Positions 2,290 to 61,570 of a DNA stretch of 64,000 nucleotides are shown in pieces. The DNA is taken from the IMG/VR virus record IMGVR_UViG_3300045988_120991, positions 32,001 to 96,000 of that record; one strand, 5' to 3'. The stretch comes from a virus. The notes under the pieces were generated by a model. It ran no database searches. It had not been told where the DNA came from and worked only from the letters and a program-made list of their open reading frames with translations. Numbering within the stretch: position 1 is the stretch's first letter; every line of letters begins with the position of its first letter. The translations under genes were made by a program, and so were the position numbers.

Positions 2290-2321
2290 GCCACACACGA
2301 AGTAGTTGCAAATAAAATAAC

Positions 2322-2364
2322 AAGGTGTTGAAGTTTCGTGTGGAACTCAACACCTTATTTTTTT
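2322..2364 (+). terminator. rho-independent terminator
   Basis: AAGGTGTTGAAGTT / AACTCAACACCTT stem (one bulged base) followed by ATTTTTTT. Confidence 0.7.
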
Positions 2365-2389
2365 ACATAGATTAAAAGGAGAAAGAACA

Positions 2390-2614
2390 ATGTCGATTGC
2401 AAAAAGCAATATAATTCCAGGCGTACAATATCAAACAGATTCTGTCGCATATATCGCTAATATGAAACAGTCATATTTGTATCTTCGTAATGGAGCAAAT
2501 CTGCTTGATATTCTTTATTTTAATACAAAGGCAGACTCGCTAGTCTTCGTATTTGAGAAGAATGATGACCTGCGGGAATTATATAAGAAATGGAATAATC
2601 ATGAACTTGAATAA
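2390..2614 (+). CDS. hypothetical protein (74 aa)
   Basis: AAGGAG RBS 8 nt upstream of the ATG. No motif recognised. Confidence 0.45.
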   Translation: MSIAKSNIIPGVQYQTDSVAYIANMKQSYLYLRNGANLLDILYFNTKADSLVFVFEKNDDLRELYKKWNNHELE

Positions 2615-2635
2615 TTTATAAGGGAGGTGGTGTAA

Positions 2636-3178
2636 TTGGCAAATCAAGATTCAACTTTTGCAACTATTATAATTGGTGTTAAGCATAATAGATTATCTGT
2701 AGTGAGAAGTGCTATTGGAACGAGTGGAATTATTGACACATTAATGTGCAAATTTGAATTTAGAACCACCGATTGGGCTGGCATTCAAAAGATGGCAGTA
2801 TTTCAGAGCATGAGTGATTATGTAAAGCATAAAGATGAAAATAAAGTTATTGTTCCATTAAATGAGCAAGGGGAATGTTATGTTCCTGCCGATGTTATGA
2901 CTGGCCAAGGAGAATTTTTAATTGGTGTATTTGGTGTATATGATAACAATAGTAGAATCGTTTCAAACTTTTTGGCATTTAAATGTGATAAAGGCTGTTA
3001 TTGCATTGGATCTACACCTGGTGGCACTACTCCCAGTGATTATGCAGAAATTATTGCTTTAATAGATAAAAAGCAGGATGTATTAATTCCCGGTGATGGA
3101 ATAAGCATTGATGAAAATAATGTAATAAGTTGTACTTGCGAAATTACACTAATAAACGGAGGTGACAGCAATGAGTAA
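2636..3178 (+). CDS. hypothetical virion-module protein (180 aa)
   Basis: TTG start 7-8 nt after GGGAGGTGGTG. The stop overlaps the start of the next fibre gene. Function unknown. Confidence 0.5.
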   Translation: MANQDSTFATIIIGVKHNRLSVVRSAIGTSGIIDTLMCKFEFRTTDWAGIQKMAVFQSMSDYVKHKDENKVIVPLNEQGECYVPADVMTGQGEFLIGVFGVYDNNSRIVSNFLAFKCDKGCYCIGSTPGGTTPSDYAEIIALIDKKQDVLIPGDGISIDENNVISCTCEITLINGGDSNE

Positions 3179-3719
3179 GACATTGAATAATGTTAGAATT
3201 CAACTCAGAAATGATACCGCCACCAATTGGCAAAATTCCACTGTGGTGCTACTGCCTGGTGAATTTGCCGTAGAAAATGATACTGGTTTATTCAAAATTG
3301 GTAATGGAACTGATGTTTTTAAGGATTTAAAATATGCAAATAAGGCTGGAGAAACTTCTCAAGAGCTGGAGAATTTAAAAGCTCAAATTGGTGATATTCC
3401 AGAAGGAAAAACCATAATCAAAATGATTGAGGAAGCGGCTTATGACGATACTACATTGTCCGGCAAAGTAACTGTAAATGAACAGGCGATTGCCTCTTTG
3501 AATAGCAAAATGGACAATATTGAGGCTGGTTCTGTAACATCCGTGAATGGTAAAACTGGCGAGGTTACTATTGCAGCCTCAGATTTAATTAAGTCTTCTT
3601 CTGACACAAATAAAATATCTATTGCTGAAGATGGAACACTTGAAGTTAATTCACTGACTTTTGATAAAATTATGCAATCAGAAGGCGATGAAATTATTCT
3701 TTCTGGTGGCGGAGCCTAA
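3171..3719 (+). CDS. fibre-like protein with Mtd_N/HylP-type N-terminal domain
   Basis: The ORF track starts at GTG 3162. ATG 3171 is preferred because it lies 6 nt after GGAGGTG and overlaps the upstream stop (ATGAGTAA). The N-terminus RIQLRNDTATNWQNSTVVLLPGEFAVENDTGLFKIGNGTDVF fits the R-x-D-T-x-x-N-W ... GE ... DT ... KIGDG pattern of phage fibre N-terminal domains. A coiled-coil-like middle follows. Confidence 0.7.
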   Translation: MSKTLNNVRIQLRNDTATNWQNSTVVLLPGEFAVENDTGLFKIGNGTDVFKDLKYANKAGETSQELENLKAQIGDIPEGKTIIKMIEEAAYDDTTLSGKVTVNEQAIASLNSKMDNIEAGSVTSVNGKTGEVTIAASDLIKSSSDTNKISIAEDGTLEVNSLTFDKIMQSEGDEIILSGGGA

Positions 3720-30800: not shown

Positions 30801-33800
30801 GAGTCAGAAAATGAGTATGGCAGAACTGTTAATACACTTAGACGTTCAAAGGACAATAATCTAAGAGGCGAAAGTAAATCTTCGTTGATAAGCCCAAGAG
30901 AAGATAGAGAGCGTTTGCTCGACCAAAAGATAGACTTTAAACCATTTTCGCAATCTAGAAAGCCGATTGATTGGGATGAATATAAAAATGACCTTCAAAG
31001 AAGATTGCAAGAAAATGAAGAGGCTTTAGCCGAGCAGCAAAAAATCGTTGATGAAGCAAGAAAGAATCTAACGTCTGCTAAGAGAGCGGTTTCATCTTCA
31101 TCTAAAAAAGTCTATAGTGGTTCTGGCGATATAAATGATGAATGGATTGCTAAAGAGGAAGATATATTGAAGTTGGCGACAGAAGATAAAAATTCTGGTC
31201 TAAACGATAAGTCAATAAAACAGTTATCTAAATTAGTAAAAAGCTCATATAGTAAAGATTCTAAAAGTTTCAAAAAGGCGTATGCAACCGCTCAAAAGGA
31301 CTTAGAATCTTTAATGTCAAAAGAGGCGACGGAAGATAATATTGCACAAGTTAAGTCTTTATTAGATTTTATTAATAGTTTGAATAGAGCTGCTGAAAAT
31401 TACACGTCTGCTGCTAAATATGTGGATGAAAAATTTGTTATAAACGAAGAAATTGACAAATCATTATTTGAAAGTGCGTCTAAAAGAGTCAGTGATGCCG
31501 GTGAAATAAAAGTAAAATCTAAGAAATACAAAGGGACAGGACTTCCACAAACTAATGTTAGCAAACTGGTTTCTGGAATTAAAAGAAAAGAGTCTATCGA
31601 GGAGTTTTCCAGTTATAGTTCTGCGTATCAAGAGCATATCAAGTCTTTGCTAGATAGTGCTTTGACTGATTTAAAAGAAACAATGCAGGGCAAAGATACT
31701 TCGGCAAACAGAAAAAAGATACAAAGTATACTTCAATATATTGATAATTTGAAGAGACAGTTTGACCAATTTAAAGAAATAGAACAGAAAATATATGAAG
31801 CATATAATTTTGGTAAAACTAAAAAAGATGTCAAATTTGAAAATCTTTCTTCTGTTGATAATATTATAGAAAATTATAAAACAGGGAAAGAAGTTTTACA
31901 AAGAAAAATCGAAGAGATAGATCAGCAGCTTGCGTATTTAGACCAACAAAAGGGTAATATAAAGCATTATACAGATGAACAAAAAGCCATAGCTAAGCTC
32001 CAACTAGATGCTTCAAATTATTATTCTGGAATATCTAAAGTAAAGCAGCTTGAATATAATTTTAATAATGCGCAAACAGAGCAAGAGAAAGAAAAGTTTG
32101 CACAATTATTGCAATCTGCTAAATCTCAAAATGCTAATGATGCTTCAAAAAATATTGGCAATGTAATAAAATTTATAGAAGAATTAGAGAGTAAATTGTC
32201 TGACAAAAACATATCGGAGCAAGATAGAAATACTCTTTCGTCCGTGTTACAAGAAGCTCAAAGTTTATTTAAAGAGCTAAATGTTGCTAATGTTACTGGG
32301 AAGACACCGTTATTTCAGATGTCTCAGTCTAGATACGAAGACATAATTGCAGACAATAGTGCCGAAGCAGAAAGAATTGCAGAAGCAGAGAAAAAAGCAT
32401 TAGCTAGAAGAGCGAAAGTTGTTGAAAAGCTAAATGATTTTGAAGCAAATTCTCCTGGTGCTGAAGCACTACGTAGAGCTTCTTCGGTAAAATCAGGAGA
32501 AAGCTATAGAAGTAAATCTATTTCTACCCAAATAGACAAAACAAATGCACAATCTGTTTTTAATGAGTCTGAAGAAAAATTGCGTGTATTAGAGAAAGAA
32601 AAAGAGGCACTTCAGGCAGAAAAAGAAAAAGTAGCAGAAAAAAAGAAGTACAATAATTTGTTAATTCAAGAAAAAAAATTAAAAGAAGAAATTGCTGCCG
32701 CAGATAAAGCTGGTGTATCTAGCGAAGAGAAAAAGATCGAATTAACAAAACTACAAGAAAAAATTGCAAAGCAAGAGAAAAAACTTGGAATAAACTTTGA
32801 AGAAGTAAGCCCATCAATGACAAAAGAAAAGGCTTTTGATAAAGCTTCTGAATATGATGCTCAAGAGAAATTACTTCGTAGTCAGGTTAAAGCGCTTGAA
32901 TCAAAAGTGGAAAGTGCGCAAGAGTTAATAAATAGCCTTACTGCTAGAGGGTTTAATTCTGCAAAAGGGGAAGCTGAACTTAGAAGGTTCACTAATGATA
33001 GAGTTGCAGATTTTAGAAGCAGTGATTATTTTAGAACAAAAAAAGATGAAATAAGAGATAAGTATCTTAAGGGTGTATATAAAGAAGACGGTACGCTTGA
33101 TAGCAGTGATAGTCTAGAAGGTAAAATACGAGAACTTGCCGATAAATATTCAAAGGATATAGATAAAATATTCTTTAATATAGCAGATGTAAAAGAAGGC
33201 AACGCGCAAGAATTTCTTAGCGGACTCATTGGAGATCAGACCAGGTTCTCTAATGCTTTTAAGGGCAACAATGATGTTGGGCAGAAGTTTATGGCCGATT
33301 ATGAAGAATTTAAATCTTTCTATTGGGAATTAATTAAAGAAGAAGAAAGTAAGGTCGTAGACGATTATAAGAAGTCTATAAAAGTAGATAAGCATAATGG
33401 GACCGTTTCGTATACTTCTTATGATGGAGATACTATCCAAGAGGTTGTTGTAGATTTAAAGAGTCAAATAATTCAAGGATTAAAGGAACAAATAGAGGCA
33501 GAACTTATGCCGACTCTTTCAGAAAAGACTGGTTTATTAGGAAGAGTTTCCGATTCAAAAAAACAAGCACTAGATTTTGCTGGTCTTAAAGAGTCCGATA
33601 TAAGAAATATAGATGTGGATAGCAAAATAGCTAGTCTTAAGTCTGATATTGAAGGTCTAAAATCAACAAACATATCTGCAAAAGATAGAGATATAGAAGG
33701 CGCAAAACAAAGAGATTTAGAACGTCAAAAAAGTATTATAGAAGAGATAGAAAGTGTAAATAGTAGAATAACATATAATGAAATAGATCAGATTAAGCTT

Positions 33801-57259: not shown

Positions 57260-58729
57260 TTAACCACAGTGGCTATACCCACATGATTTACAAATGTCAC
57301 ATCCGCCTTCGTGCTCAAGCGGTTCTCCACACTCTGGGCATCTCCCGTCATTTTCAGTAACCATCTTAACATCATTAGAGACTCTAGGTTTATCGCATTC
57401 AGCCTCGGAACCTGTGTCATAGGTATCATCAATTTCATCTTGCATCTCCTTCCACATGTCTACAAGAGCATTTCCAATAGCCATAGGACAACAAGAACCT
57501 TTTGATGTGTCGTGCTTTGTAGCTGTTCTTGCCGCGTAGCTTGGGCATACACCGGTTGAATCTAGCTGGTCTTTAATTGTCATGATGTCAACACCGGCTC
57601 TACATAGCAATGATATTGTACGGCTTAAACCAATCATAAAATTGGCACATCCTCCACTGCTTCCTTTGTTGAAATAAACTTCTTGTAAATCACCATTATA
57701 TGGATCAAAGAAGGCCAATACATGAAGACTTCCGCATCCAGTAGTCAGCTTACGCTTTTTACCAACAAGGTCATCGGAACAGTTCATGATTGCACCACGA
57801 GGAATAGATTCTTCTGTCTGAATTTCTTCTTTGTTTTTATCTTCTACAATCAATACACCTTCACGCTTACAGCCAGAACGATAAATTGTAATACCTTTTA
57901 GACCATTCTTCCAAGCGGACATATAAATGTTTTTAACATCATCAATCGTCGCTTCGTTTGGTAGATTTACAGTAGAGCTAATACTTGCGTCAATACCCTT
58001 TTGCCAAGCAGCCTGCATAGCTACACGTTTGTTATAGTCAATTTCGGAAGAATCAACAAACCAATCAGGGAATTTATCGTTGACAGTAAGTCCGTGTTCG
58101 TCTGCATACTTTTGATAAATAGGGGTAAGCACATCATAGTACTGCGTTGTTTCGTGCAGAGATTCTGTCTTACGCCTGTAGCTCTTTGCGAAAATAGGCT
58201 CAATACCACCACTGATTCCAAGCATCGTTGAGATGGTTCCGGTTGGAGCAATGGTTAGAAGTTGACTATTGCGTAGACCATAATTATCAACCATGTTTCT
58301 TGTTAGGGTGTCTGCATTTGCTCTAAAGAATGGGGTATCAATTGTTGCATTTGTATATTTAGGATATATACCCTTTTCACAAGCTAAGTGAGAAGAAACA
58401 TAAATTGCGTGGTTGGCCATTGCCATAGAAATATCACGGCAGTGTTCGATTGCCTCGTCACTATCATAACGTAAATGCATCTTGATGAGCATATCAGCAA
58501 CGCCCATAACTCCTAAGCCAACCTGTCTCCAGTCTCTTACGCTATCTCTTTGCTCTTGTAATGGATGTAGAGGAAGTCCTTCATCTAGAACCTCATTTAA
58601 GTATCTAATACCAATATCTACTGTATCGTAGAAATCATCATACATAAAATTGCCATAATCATCTACAAAGGCAGACAGATTAATTGATGCTAGGAGACAG
58701 CTCCCCCCTGCGGGTAATGGTTCTTCTGC
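57260..58729 (-). CDS. nrdJ: class II (B12-dependent) ribonucleotide reductase NrdJ, exon 2 (489 codons)
   Basis: The reading frame is open upstream of the track's ATG (58645) back to 58729, where it reads AEEPLPAGGSCLLASINLSAFV. This continues the TNPC active-site motif that ends exon 1. The C-terminus has the Zn-ribbon tail CPECGEPLEHEGGCDICKSCGYSHCG typical of NrdJ. Confidence 0.85.
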   Translation of the reverse strand, partial: AEEPLPAGGSCLLASINLSAFVDDYGNFMYDDFYDTVDIGIRYLNEVLDEGLPLHPLQEQRDSVRDWRQVGLGVMGVADMLIKMHLRYDSDEAIEHCRDISMAMANHAIYVSSHLACEKGIYPKYTNATIDTPFFRANADTLTRNMVDNYGLRNSQLLTIAPTGTISTMLGISGGIEPIFAKSYRRKTESLHETTQYYDVLTPIYQKYADEHGLTVNDKFPDWFVDSSEIDYNKRVAMQAAWQKGIDASISSTVNLPNEATIDDVKNIYMSAWKNGLKGITIYRSGCKREGVLIVEDKNKEEIQTEESIPRGAIMNCSDDLVGKKRKLTTGCGSLHVLAFFDPYNGDLQEVYFNKGSSGGCANFMIGLSRTISLLCRAGVDIMTIKDQLDSTGVCPSYAARTATKHDTSKGSCCPMAIGNALVDMWKEMQDEIDDTYDTGSEAECDKPRVSNDVKMVTENDGRCPECGEPLEHEGGCDICKSCGYSHCG

Positions 58730-59623
58730 CTTGGTGAACCATAAACCATAGACTATATCTTATCCCTCAGCATTATCTGTTAGGGTAATCGCACTTTGTA
58801 AATTTTTTTGGAGATTCCACATATTATCACTCATCCATTTTGGCTGGTATTCATACCCAAGATATAATTTGTACATCATTGTATCTACCATATATGGATA
58901 AATTAAATTAATAAACTTTTCATAACTACTTTGACTAACTCTCAGACGATAAAACTTTCCACGTTTAACAATAGATGTTTGTATGTCAAATCTTTTATTA
59001 AACATATCCTTCATTGATTCTATTACATTTAAACTATATCTATCTGTACAAAAATCAATTCTACGATTTTTAATAACACCTTTTGTTCTACCAACAAGAC
59101 AAACATATCCATCACACATATACCAATTAGCAATACCATTTGGTGTAATCCAACTAAGTGCTTCTTTGGATGCAATTCTATTTTTATAATCATCATAGAA
59201 ATGGTGATATTTTTTATTAAAATACGGATGTGCTTTAATTCTTAATGTCCATGATTCTTTGTGATTACATCCGCATCTTTCATGTGCTAGAATATGTTTA
59301 ATGTTTATTTGAAAGTTTGTACAAGATTTAATATCATTTTTAATTTTATCTATAAAGTTTTTATCAACGCTTTTTATTTCAAAAGCTCTTTTAGTTATTC
59401 CTTTATCAATGCAACCGTCTCCAAAAATCAGTCCCGTCAAATATCCTTTTAACTCTGAACTATTCATACATTATAGCCTCCTATAATTTTGTATGTATTA
59501 AATTTACATTAGTCGTTGAACCTTCCTATCTTACATAGGCTTGGCTGCTGATTAACCTTCGTCTTCCAGCAATTCACGATTGATTATTTCTTAAAGTTTC
59601 CTTTAAGCCCTGCACAGATGCTT
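58730..59623 (-). mobile_element. group I intron (894 nt) carrying a LAGLIDADG homing endonuclease ORF
   Basis: Exon 1 ends CCCUGU. An intron internal guide GCAGGG, 10 nt downstream, pairs with it, including the U-G wobble at the splice site (P1). The adjacent UCUGU pairs with the exon 2 start GCAGA (P10). The last intron base is G (58730). Joining the exons restores TNPC|AEEPLP in frame. Confidence 0.8.
58760..59467 (-). CDS. intron-encoded LAGLIDADG homing endonuclease (235 aa)
   Basis: AGGAGG RBS inside the intron. Two LAGLIDADG motifs are present: LTGLIFGDGCI and IANWYMCDGYV. Confidence 0.85.
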   Translation of the reverse strand: MNSSELKGYLTGLIFGDGCIDKGITKRAFEIKSVDKNFIDKIKNDIKSCTNFQINIKHILAHERCGCNHKESWTLRIKAHPYFNKKYHHFYDDYKNRIASKEALSWITPNGIANWYMCDGYVCLVGRTKGVIKNRRIDFCTDRYSLNVIESMKDMFNKRFDIQTSIVKRGKFYRLRVSQSSYEKFINLIYPYMVDTMMYKLYLGYEYQPKWMSDNMWNLQKNLQSAITLTDNAEG

Positions 59624-61570
59624 ACAGGGATTAGTACCAGCATATTCAAAATCTGGGTTATTACTTAGTAAATTATAATTTTCAATGTTATTCCAAAATA
59701 GAATACCTGGTTCTGCCCAGTTCCAATTGTTCTCACATAGCTTATCAAAAATATCTCTTGCTTTTGCAGTCTTTGTGATTGTTTCACCAGTTTCTGGACG
59801 AGTAAAAGACATTACCCAATCGGTATTATCTTCGACCGCTTGCATAAAATCATCTGTTACACGTACAGAGATATTAGCTTTAGTAACACTGTTCTCTTTA
59901 GTCTTGATGTCAATAAAGTCCATTAGGTCTGGATGATGACAATCAAGGCTAATCATTAAAGCTCCTCTGCGGCCATTCTGACCGATCTCCTCAGTTGTCT
60001 GACTGTAGCCCTGCATAAAACTTACAGCTCCACTAGTCTTTTCTGCTTGATTATGGACCTTTGCACCAGCGGGGGCAAGCTTAGAAATGTCGATTCCACA
60101 GCCTCCACCATACGAATATGTTCTTGCTAGCTTCTTACGACTTTCAAAAATAGACTCAATATTATCCTCTGGAGGAGCAATAACATAGCAATTATGAACA
60201 ATAACACCATTTACATTATATGTATGCGTGTCTTCTACAGATAAGTTGTATACTTTGCAGTGGCAATCTTCAGATATGCTAATTGAACTTAGAGCCGCAT
60301 ACTCAAAATCGCCACGTACATCAAGGTTATTTCTTCCATCACTATATTGTTTAGATAATAGTGGATTTAAAAATTTATTAGAAATAGCTACCCCGACACG
60401 AAATTCATATGTATCGGCTTGACGCTCTACAGAATGAATAGGAGATGCGTTAATACCATTCATCCACATTGTATAATATAGCCAATCAATTAATTTACGA
60501 TTTTTTAGCACAATACGAAATGCACCGTGTGTGTCGAGCGTACCATCTGCGTCACATAGTCCGACCATCATTGGAACACAACCAAGATATTCGTTAGGAA
60601 CAAATTTGCCGTCGCATTTTTCTCCAAAATGGTTAACAAACCAAGATGCTATAATTTCACTTTCAAACCTTAAAGCAATAACATTCTGATTGGTTTCACG
60701 ATAAGATGCATGAATACCAAAAACATTTTCACCAATAGACTTACAACGTTCAAATGCATCACGCTCTGTGGTTGCGTTGAATACGATTTGTAGAATAGAT
60801 GGATTTTTATAACCACGGCGTGCCGTTATACTACCATCACCCAACCAACGACCAATAAAATATGCAAAATCATCATCAAATACCCACTCAGCACGTACAG
60901 AATTGCCTCTATGCTGATATGTTGTAGTTCCGCGGTCATTTACAAGCGTATAAATTTGAGCCATTCCGTCTTTTACTTCAACCTTGCTATTGTCTCTAGC
61001 CTTAAATCCATCAAGAGCGGATACAATCTTTGGCGTAAACTTAATCATATGGTGTTGTGCCATCTTAATTTTATCCTGTGCTTTAATTTGCTCAGAACAA
61101 GCAAGTATACGGTCTGCTCGTTTCCAACCGTGGTTTGTCAAAATTTTATGATTCGGAGTACATTTGATTGGTTCCATAAAATTTATACTTTCAAGACAAT
61201 AAATATCTCCAGTATATTCACGACACATAATGTCATTTACACGATGAAACTGTTCATCATGAGATAGCACCATGTCTCCAATAGCAATATCTTCAATGTT
61301 TTTAAATCCGTCAATCGTAAGTACTTTGGAACCAGCCATAAAACAATTTGAGTATGTAACCCTAGTGTCTTTAATACCTCGGTTGCTAAGAATACGACCA
61401 CCAGGAACAAACTTCTTGCTGATAATTGCATTTTTTACTCTCTTGTTGCCGCCGCTTACTCTGTCTAGCCATTCATCAAATGACTCTTCACCCTTACGAT
61501 ATTTTCTCATCCAAATATCAATACCGAGTAGGTTGTCTTTCCCTAGCCACTGTTCTACTGTCATAGGCAT
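59624..61570 (-). CDS. nrdJ: NrdJ exon 1 (264 extein codons) including an in-frame 385-codon intein
   Basis: The N-terminus reads MPMTVEQWLGKDN...FDEWLDRVSGGN...FVPGGRILSNRG...TYSN. After the intein it resumes CYVIAPPEDNIESIF...YGGGCGIDIS...AGTNPC. The track ORF's last residues, KHLCRA, are intron read-through. Confidence 0.85.
60191..61345 (-). mobile_element. intein (385 aa) with LAGLIDADG homing endonuclease domain
   Basis: Starts CFMAGSKVLTIDG (Cys1, Hint N-terminal block) and ends GVIVHN, followed by the +1 Cys (CYVIAPP). The internal motifs FIGRWLGDGSI and MMVGLCDADGTL are LAGLIDADG blocks. Removing it restores the conserved TYSN|CYV RNR sequence. Confidence 0.85.

Follow-up and report, generated by a model that had tools for sequence, protein, structure and literature searches.

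Introduction

Group I introns that carry homing endonucleases are a textbook feature of phage ribonucleotide reductase (RNR) genes, in which they lie beside the codons of catalytic residues and are sometimes accompanied by inteins, the standard examples being T4, SPbeta and Twort. Here we describe an element that appears to belong to this group. It interrupts nrdJ, an RNR gene of an uncultured human-gut phage with a genome of 166 kb, in a 64,000-nt stretch of DNA (hereafter the window; positions 32,001 to 96,000 of the IMG/VR virus record IMGVR_UViG_3300045988_120991). We conclude, with a probability of about 0.88, that the interruption of this class II nrdJ is due to a mobile, IA2-like intron of group I, which holds a LAGLIDADG endonuclease gene.

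Phage RNR introns near catalytic residues have been reviewed (PMC3653736, PMC3984707). The nucleases that predominate in phage introns are of the GIY-YIG, HNH, PD-(D/E)xK and EDxHD types, and LAGLIDADG enzymes are not among them (2014 review, PMC3984707). In introns of Bastillevirinae phages, covariance models match only the ribozyme parts on either side of a long homing-nuclease loop, core elements overlap the nuclease gene, and one case has LAGLIDADG_2 (PMC11878797); nuclease open reading frames (ORFs) that overlap core elements of phage introns have already been described (PMC3984707, PMC11878797). The codon of the thiyl-radical cysteine is a favoured target of inteins too, being their most frequent site in class I and class II RNRs (PMC2677866).

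Results

Position of the intron in nrdJ

In the window, nrdJ is encoded on the minus strand and interrupted by 894 nt bounded by the TGT codon of the motif TNPC on the 5′ side and by the GCA codon of AEEPLPAGGSCLL on the 3′ side (Table 1). A 655-codon ORF (61570..59603, minus strand) that comprises the RNR barrel domain and a Hint/intein module leads through ...ACT AAT CCC TGT, the last exon base being 59624, and ends ...YAGTNPC-KHLCRA-stop: an unspliced message would be read from exon 1 into these six residues and terminate at a TAA that lies in frame six codons into the intron. The second RNR frame (58729..57260) opens with GCA GAA GAA CCA and begins AEEPLPAGGSCLL. As both exons (1947 and 1470 nt) are divisible by three, they join in frame. 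The predicted spliced junction leads from ...ACUAAUCCCUGU to GCAGAAGAACCAUUA... and leaves out exactly the 894 nt, CCCUGU being followed by GCAGAA; the joined sequence, ...AAUCCCUGU followed by GCAGAAGAACC..., would give TNPC-AEEPLPAGGSCLL, and the corresponding intron-less DNA is GGTACTAATCCCTGTGCAGAAGAACCATTACC.

Over this junction the joined protein aligns without a gap with an RNR that has no intron, that of Clostridioides phage LIBA6276 (YAG(T/V)NPCAEEPLPAGGSCLL), and nrdJ is also uninterrupted there in the IMG/VR homologues L122-L129. Free of intron and intein, the product has 753 amino acids and scores 496.2 bits on the NCBIfam model TIGR02504 (NrdJ_Z, cut-off 399.95); judged by its sequence, the gene is that of a class II (adenosylcobalamin-dependent, vitamin-B12-type) RNR, NrdJ. 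The N-x-C-x-E motif is present, TNPCAEE aligning with N320-x-C322-x-E324 of Thermotoga maritima NrdJ. The intron is inserted directly 3′ of the Cys codon, and this Cys aligns with C322, known as the thiyl-radical cysteine of the T. maritima enzyme. A first-pass annotation of the window, made from its letters without database searches, had read exon 1 as ending in TNPC (ACU AAU CCC UGU) and running on into KHLCRA-stop, had located the rest of the RNR motif in frame 894 nt downstream, and had placed the split exactly after the thiyl-radical Cys codon. Both features of exon 1 were found on the minus strand, the insert and the start of exon 2 lie where it had put them, and the alignment with T. 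maritima bears out the position after the Cys codon.

Gene callers split nrdJ into two or three ORFs, which the recognition of intron and intein reunites into one 753-residue enzyme. That callers give relatives two separate RNR ORFs would also agree with a fractured gene, in which a free-standing endonuclease gene splits nrdJ without any RNA splicing and the two polypeptides assemble, as in nrdA of Aeromonas phage Aeh1; there is precedent for this in phage RNRs (PMC3045599, PMC3653736). The nearest in-frame start for the C-terminal piece (57260..58645), however, would cost it 28 conserved residues including AEEPLPAGGSCLL. Moreover, the flanking non-coding RNA has the conserved, covarying fold of a ribozyme, for which a free-standing gene would have no need, and a guide inside the insert pairs with the ends of both exons. 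We therefore regard a fractured nrdJ as extremely unlikely.

The 385-residue intein encoded within exon 1 has a LAGLIDADG-like middle, with Cys1 at one end and His-Asn followed by a +1 Cys at the other, and sits between TYSN and CYV, at another conserved cysteine. A gap of similar size is seen at this site in L122 and L147, and none in L124-L129, L148, L149 and L151.

Fold of the intron RNA

Sequence and comparison show that the pre-mRNA can fold into P1-P10. In a model built by hand we located the complete set of group I core elements, that is, P1 with its U·G pair, P2-P9, P10 and the terminal G (Table 1). The ends of both exons pair with one and the same guide of 11 nt, UCUGUGCAGGG. At the 5′ splice site this puts the last base of the Cys codon, a U, opposite a G, and the part of the guide that forms P10 (UCUGU, 59618..59614) is contained in the loop of P1. 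The J8/7-P7 sequence AAGAUAUAGUC matches the RF00028 consensus exactly, and GUUCAACGACUA matches it too. Subgroup IA2 is marked by extra helices, P7.1 and P7.2, that follow the 5′ strand of P7 and precede the 3′ strand of P3, by a short P5 and by phage-type consensus sequences. The nrdJ intron has one covarying P7.1-like helix at this position and a core like that of Twort-like phage introns; a separate P7.2 was not identified. When the RNA is folded without its ORF, the minimum free energy structure contains P2-P6a, P7.1, P9 and the Shine-Dalgarno hairpin (z = -3.9). We rejected the long-range alternative to P1 and P8 that it contains, which has no comparative support.

The fold was compared across an alignment of nine distinct introns (the window copy and eight homologues) from which the ORF interior had been removed. 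Standard pairs occupy 92.1% of cells under the proposed structure, and 32-47% in slid controls in which the 3′ partners were moved by 1-3 columns. Changes on both sides occur in 34 of the 72 pairs (4-9 in the slid versions), the covariation score is 0.394 (0.05-0.09 in the slid versions), and none of 500 shuffles equalled the observed values. Derivation of the structure from one of the aligned sequences favours the percentage paired, a bias from which the compensatory changes are free. P1 pairs at all six positions in 9/9 homologues, three of which have changed CCC/GGG to CCA/UGG (CG to AU). Compensatory changes affect five of seven pairs in both P2 (92.1% paired) and P8 (93.7%), and four of seven in both P3 (100%), which covaries family-wide as well, and the P7.1-like helix (90.5%); P9 has double changes in three pairs. 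P7 is invariant among the nine introns and hence uninformative on covariation, and AAGAUAUAGUC at the 3′ end, also invariant in 9/9, fits the family consensus.

This signal extends to a much larger family. The core pattern P4...P6...GGUUCAACGACUA is found in at least 118 IMG/VR viral contigs, in nearly all of them with GAUAUAGUC downstream, a sequence that is invariant in the intron family. Of 110 distinct members, 67% have, immediately before J8/7, a stretch that can pair over at least 7 bp with the 8-mer preceding P4, as compared with 9% when the 5′ and 3′ parts are taken from different members.

RF00028 (Intron_gpI) matches both halves of the intron, the first at 59633..59435 (minus strand; 41.8 bits, E 5e-9 in a local search and 1.8e-10 in a genome search) and the second at 58876..58730 (minus strand; 16.7 bits). 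No single match attains the gathering score of 50 bits, because some 700 nt of coding sequence divide the ribozyme, and an Rfam gathering scan of the whole window matched nothing. Gathering mode was also silent on Staphylococcus phage PG-2021_35 (L002), whose introns at 2133-2356 and 2421-2698 score 98.9 and 60.1 bits on RF00028 in E-value mode. Since it misses two genuine introns above 50 bits, its silence means little.

Some of what the first-pass annotation had said of the ribozyme stands as written. Its P1 (CCCUGU/GCAGGG with a U·G pair) is backed by the compensatory change in three homologues, the G that it gave as the last intron base is a G in 9/9, and the manual folding that it suggested located every helix from P3 to P9. 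P10 (UCUGU/GCAGA) does pair in the window, and is only partly conserved; likewise, the Rfam check that it named yielded matches in both halves, at scores under the gathering score.

Several points weigh against the identification of a functional mobile intron: the lack of a single Rfam match at the gathering score, a P5 of only 3 bp, the weakness of P10 in some homologues (it is the weakest helix, with 82% of cells paired and 2 bp in L149), and the fact that the activity and target site of the endonuclease are read from its family membership. The low Rfam score would in particular suit a relic that no longer splices, which would make nrdJ a pseudogene and leave the phage on the deoxyribonucleotide supply of its host. 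However, all core helices are intact, and compensatory changes have maintained them in introns that have diverged to the point where their endonucleases share only 59-89% identity. The reading frames of the endonuclease and of both exons are open and conserved, and nrdJ is interrupted in the same way in other contigs, the longest of ~164 kb (L149). A dead intron thus has a slim chance of being the right explanation.

A further alternative concerns the architecture of the intron and not its nature. In the alignment produced by Rfam cmscan, P8 and the second strand of P7 lie where the ORF begins: the hairpin 59487..59470 becomes P8, GUAUGAAUAGUU at the ORF start becomes J8/7 and the P7 3′ strand, and the ORF falls in an extension of P9. 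In favour of this arrangement, other phage introns are known to hold their ORF in an extended P9 (T4 nrdD/sunY). Yet it has no 3′ strand for P3, as the non-canonical marks in the alignment reveal, and its P7 strand is not conserved, UAGUU having become AAGUU in L151, which breaks the proposed P7. The invariant copy AAGAUAUAGUC at the 3′ end and the compensatory pairs that P3 and P8 show where the ORF ends also speak against it, and ORF-less relatives have their extra hairpins after the 5′ strand of P7 and before the 3′ strand of P3. The unpaired P3, the non-conserved P7 strand and the ORF-less relatives together place the ORF in the loop of the P7.1-like helix, and make the Rfam architecture very unlikely. 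What misled the Rfam alignment is the start of the endonuclease ORF, GUAUGAAUAGUUC (59459-59472, minus strand), which looks like the J8/7-P7 consensus.

Endonuclease gene and its overlap with the core

The 235-codon ORF of the intron matches Pfam PF03161 (LAGLIDADG_2) with an E value of 3.9e-23 (82.7 bits, cut-off 25), and its matches in the PDB (E 6e-9 to 6e-7) are the intron-encoded endonuclease 6x1j and I-SceI (1r7m, 3oor). It therefore presumably encodes a two-motif LAGLIDADG_2 homing endonuclease of the I-SceI type, the activity and target of which we infer from this family membership. The Shine-Dalgarno sequence, GGAGG, lies 9 nt upstream of the AUG, as expected from the first-pass annotation, which had described a two-motif ORF with its own ribosome-binding site. 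That annotation had also counted 30 nt from the ORF stop to the 3′ splice site and reasoned that the 3′ core had to overlap the ORF end, and both statements hold. The ORF fills the loop that the P7.1-like helix closes, downstream of the 5′ strand of P7; its UAA (58762..58760) falls within J8/7, exactly 30 nt before the splice site, and the final 14 codons supply the 3′ strands of P7.1 and P3 and all of P8. The order in this tail is P7.1 3′ strand, AAG, P3 3′ strand, P8, and UAA in J8/7. The Pfam alignment ends at residue 185 and the PDB alignment at residue 202, beyond which a tail of ~33 residues follows. This overlap is a clear example of a translated stretch that is also under selection at the RNA level.

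An out-of-frame AUG, 4 nt upstream of the real start, opens a mini-ORF of three codons (AUG UAU GAA UAG) that overlaps that start. The same arrangement is found in L149 (AUG UAU GCA UAG), and not in L151.

In the wider family (ORF loci L007, L012, L024, L029, L038, L042, L048, L072, L078, L082, L110 and L116-L118), the intact ORFs are of the LAGLIDADG, GIY-YIG and HNH types, and most of them begin 30-65 nt past the 5′ strand of P7 (-19 to +127 over all). Their stops lie, in all cases but one, within -10 to +12 nt of GAUAUAGUC, which several of them translate as ...DIV-stop. Since the end of the ORF lies in the catalytic core, a ribosome that completes it would have to unwind that core. It is conceivable, although we consider it doubtful, that endonuclease translation and splicing exclude each other on any one transcript; the folded core, the hairpin that presents the Shine-Dalgarno sequence and the out-of-frame AUG might then gate initiation of the endonuclease. 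If this were true, the recurrence of the same layout with three unrelated nuclease types across the viral IA2-like family would make the exclusion a general design rule of phage introns, and not an accident of 'core creep'.

Distribution and proposed mobility

Homologues of the endonuclease form 235 clusters at 57-94% identity in a large protein index. The eight that we sampled (59-89% identity) all occupy this one site of nrdJ; the genes around them are phage-like, and they are flanked by an N-terminal RNR part ending NPC and a C-terminal part starting AEEPLP. When the endonuclease was searched against phage isolates with tblastn, only partial matches at 31% identity were returned; GenBank phages contained no near-identical match to 24 kb of the window, no close relative was found among 50,697 GenBank phage records, and a search of IMG/VR with the back-translated endonuclease found no confirmed relative. 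Two loci with NPC upstream of the core motif, L039 and L112, were set aside as a different site: their intron lies ~12 codons downstream, after QFCNL.

In L122-L128, IMG/VR homologues with 92-98% amino acid identity around the junction, the site is empty. Such patchy presence among near-identical genes fits homing, and the full course of events can be proposed as follows. An external guanosine bound in P7 (GACUA/UAGUC) would attack after the U of the Cys codon, the freed 3′-OH of exon 1 would then attack after the terminal G, and ligation of the exons would restore TNPC-AEEPLPAGGSCLL and an active NrdJ. During co-infection, the endonuclease would cut intron-less nrdJ at the conserved DNA coding for TNPC/AEE, and repair would copy the intron into the cut allele, which would explain the patchy distribution. 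We infer both splicing and endonuclease cleavage from the sequences compared here.

The Pro codon before the Cys is CCC or CCA in 9/9 intron-bearing alleles, where the guide matches it, and CCT in most empty-site alleles. This bias could stem from co-conversion, from a constraint on P1 or from a target preference of the endonuclease.

Across the clade, this one gene has at least five insertion sites (Table 1), and which of them carry the intron, the intein or another insert differs between related genes. The L137 and L141 inserts lie one codon downstream of the nrdJ intron, after NPCA (GCU/...G/GAAGAG, slashes marking the ends of the insert). For these inserts we could write out by hand a P1 of 8 bp with a U·G pair (in L141, CGUGUGCU/GGCGCACG) and a possible P7 (GCAUA/UAUGC); Rfam gave no group I match on either insert. 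They are probably group I introns of another type. L143, which has a distant RNR, contains at 2300-3470 an in-frame LAGLIDADG insert of ~380 residues between ATNP and C, which reads on into ...VVNGCSCARCGEVPG and has no obvious His-Asn end before the +1 Cys. The nrdJ intron, the unrelated, probable GIY-YIG intron one codon further on and the intein-like insert of L143 make this a crowded site. Codons of thiyl-radical cysteines draw several independent selfish elements, which offers a compact system for studying the competition between them. An HNH_3 ORF lies between thyX and nrdJ in L148 (978-1562).

The ORF of the L137 insert has an in-frame TGA and that of L141 an in-frame TAG, a hint of recoded stop codons, and an endonuclease homologue on an 83-kb contig (L160:1201-1905) yields the database protein only if TAG is read as Gln. 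Some phages with this intron family seem to use a recoded stop codon.

Table 1. Features of the interrupted nrdJ gene in the window, and insertion sites in nrdJ across the clade
Feature	Position	Strand	Details
nrdJ exon 1	59624..61570	minus	in-frame 385-aa intein (61345..60191) included; ends TGT of TNPC; Pfam Ribonuc_red_lgC, Intein_splicing
Group I intron	58730..59623	minus	894 nt, 29.5% G+C
P1	59608..59629	minus	exon CCCUGU 59629..59624 / guide GCAGGG 59613..59608; U·G at 5′ splice site
P2 hairpin	59590..59607	minus	CUUAAAG-GAAA-CUUUAAG
P3 5′ strand	59575..59581	minus	AAUCGUG
P4-P5-P6-P6a domain	59520..59571	minus	Rfam alignment, covariation, minimum free energy fold
P4			UGCUGG / UCAGCA
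P5			GAC / GUU
P6			GCC / GGU
P6a			CCUAU / AUAGG
P7 5′ strand	59510..59514	minus	GACUA within conserved GUUCAACGACUA; invariant
P7.1-like helix, 5′ strand	59502..59508	minus	UGUAAAU; closes ORF-holding loop with 58803..58797
Shine-Dalgarno hairpin	59470..59487	minus	AUUAUAG-GAGG-CUAUAAU; conserved; Shine-Dalgarno in loop; 2 nt before endonuclease AUG
LAGLIDADG homing endonuclease gene	58760..59467	minus	235 aa, I-SceI-like; motifs LIFGDG, WYMCDG
P7.1-like helix, 3′ strand	58797..58803	minus	AUUUACA, inside ORF
P3 3′ strand	58787..58793	minus	UGCGAUU, inside ORF
P8 hairpin	58764..58785	minus	CCCUAACAG-AUAAUG-CUGAGGG, inside ORF
J8/7 + P7 3′ strand	58751..58763	minus	AUAAGAUAUAGUC; P7 3′ strand UAGUC 58755..58751
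P9 hairpin	58732..58748	minus	UGGU-UUAUGGUUC-ACCA
Terminal G (omega G)	58730	minus	3′ splice site; G in 9/9 homologous introns
P10 partner	58725..58729	minus	exon 2 GCAGA pairs with UCUGU 59618..59614; 82% of cells paired
nrdJ exon 2	57260..58729	minus	starts GCA GAA GAA (AEEPLPAGGSCLL...); C-terminal TSCPD domain, Cys-rich tail
Insert at NrdJ residue 75	L122, L147		intein-sized, ~1.1 kb
Insert at NrdJ residue ~150	L123:2364-3335		972 nt
Insert at NrdJ residue 264	window, L147-L149, L151 and others		nrdJ group I intron
Insert at NrdJ residue 265	L137:2365-3500, L141:2354-3500		~1.14 kb, with GIY-YIG ORF
Insert at NrdJ residue 336	L148:3455-4396		942 nt, GIY-YIG/NUMOD3
Insert at NP/C motif	L143 (distant RNR)		in-frame LAGLIDADG insert, probable intein

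Discussion

The nrdJ intron is real, well conserved and a familiar kind of selfish element. What is specific to it is its class II host gene, its exact site, its LAGLIDADG passenger and the family that it forms in metagenomic phages. This family of intron endonucleases in metagenomic phage contigs could supply an enzyme of the I-SceI type with a defined natural target, the DNA coding for TNPC/AEE. I-SceI itself, a monomeric two-motif enzyme from a yeast mitochondrial group I intron, shares with the product of the intron ORF its length class (235 aa) and the Pfam family LAGLIDADG_2. The two differ in that the match between them is weak (33-39 bits), and in that the phage protein has a C-terminal tail of ~33 residues whose last 14 codons encode ribozyme helices.

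In its ribozyme, the nrdJ intron resembles the two IA2 introns of the Twort-like staphylococcal phage L002: a stretch of 62 nt in P4-P7 is 85% identical, the consensus of J6/7-P7 and of J8/7-P7 is shared, and extra helices follow the 5′ strand of P7 and precede the 3′ strand of P3. Those introns, however, have no ORF (224 and 278 nt) and interrupt another gene, and their extra helices are two small hairpins, whereas the nrdJ intron has in that place one long-range helix enclosing a loop of 700 nt. With the Bastillevirinae introns it shares a ribozyme split by the nuclease gene and an overlap of core and ORF, but it differs from them in phage clade, host gene and insertion site.

RNR inteins located at the thiyl-radical cysteine target the same few conserved codons; they splice as protein and are inserted before the Cys, while the nrdJ intron is of the RNA-splicing type and follows the Cys codon. 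Finally, the RNR introns of T4, SPbeta and Twort resemble it in having a group IA-type ribozyme beside codons of important conserved residues of an RNR, and in carrying a homing endonuclease gene, and bnrdE of SPbeta also unites an intron and an intein in a single RNR gene. Compared with the introns described in the reviews (PMC3653736, PMC3984707), the one presented here stands apart by its host, a class II nrdJ, by its site directly 3′ of the codon for the thiyl-radical cysteine and, among phage introns, by its LAGLIDADG passenger.

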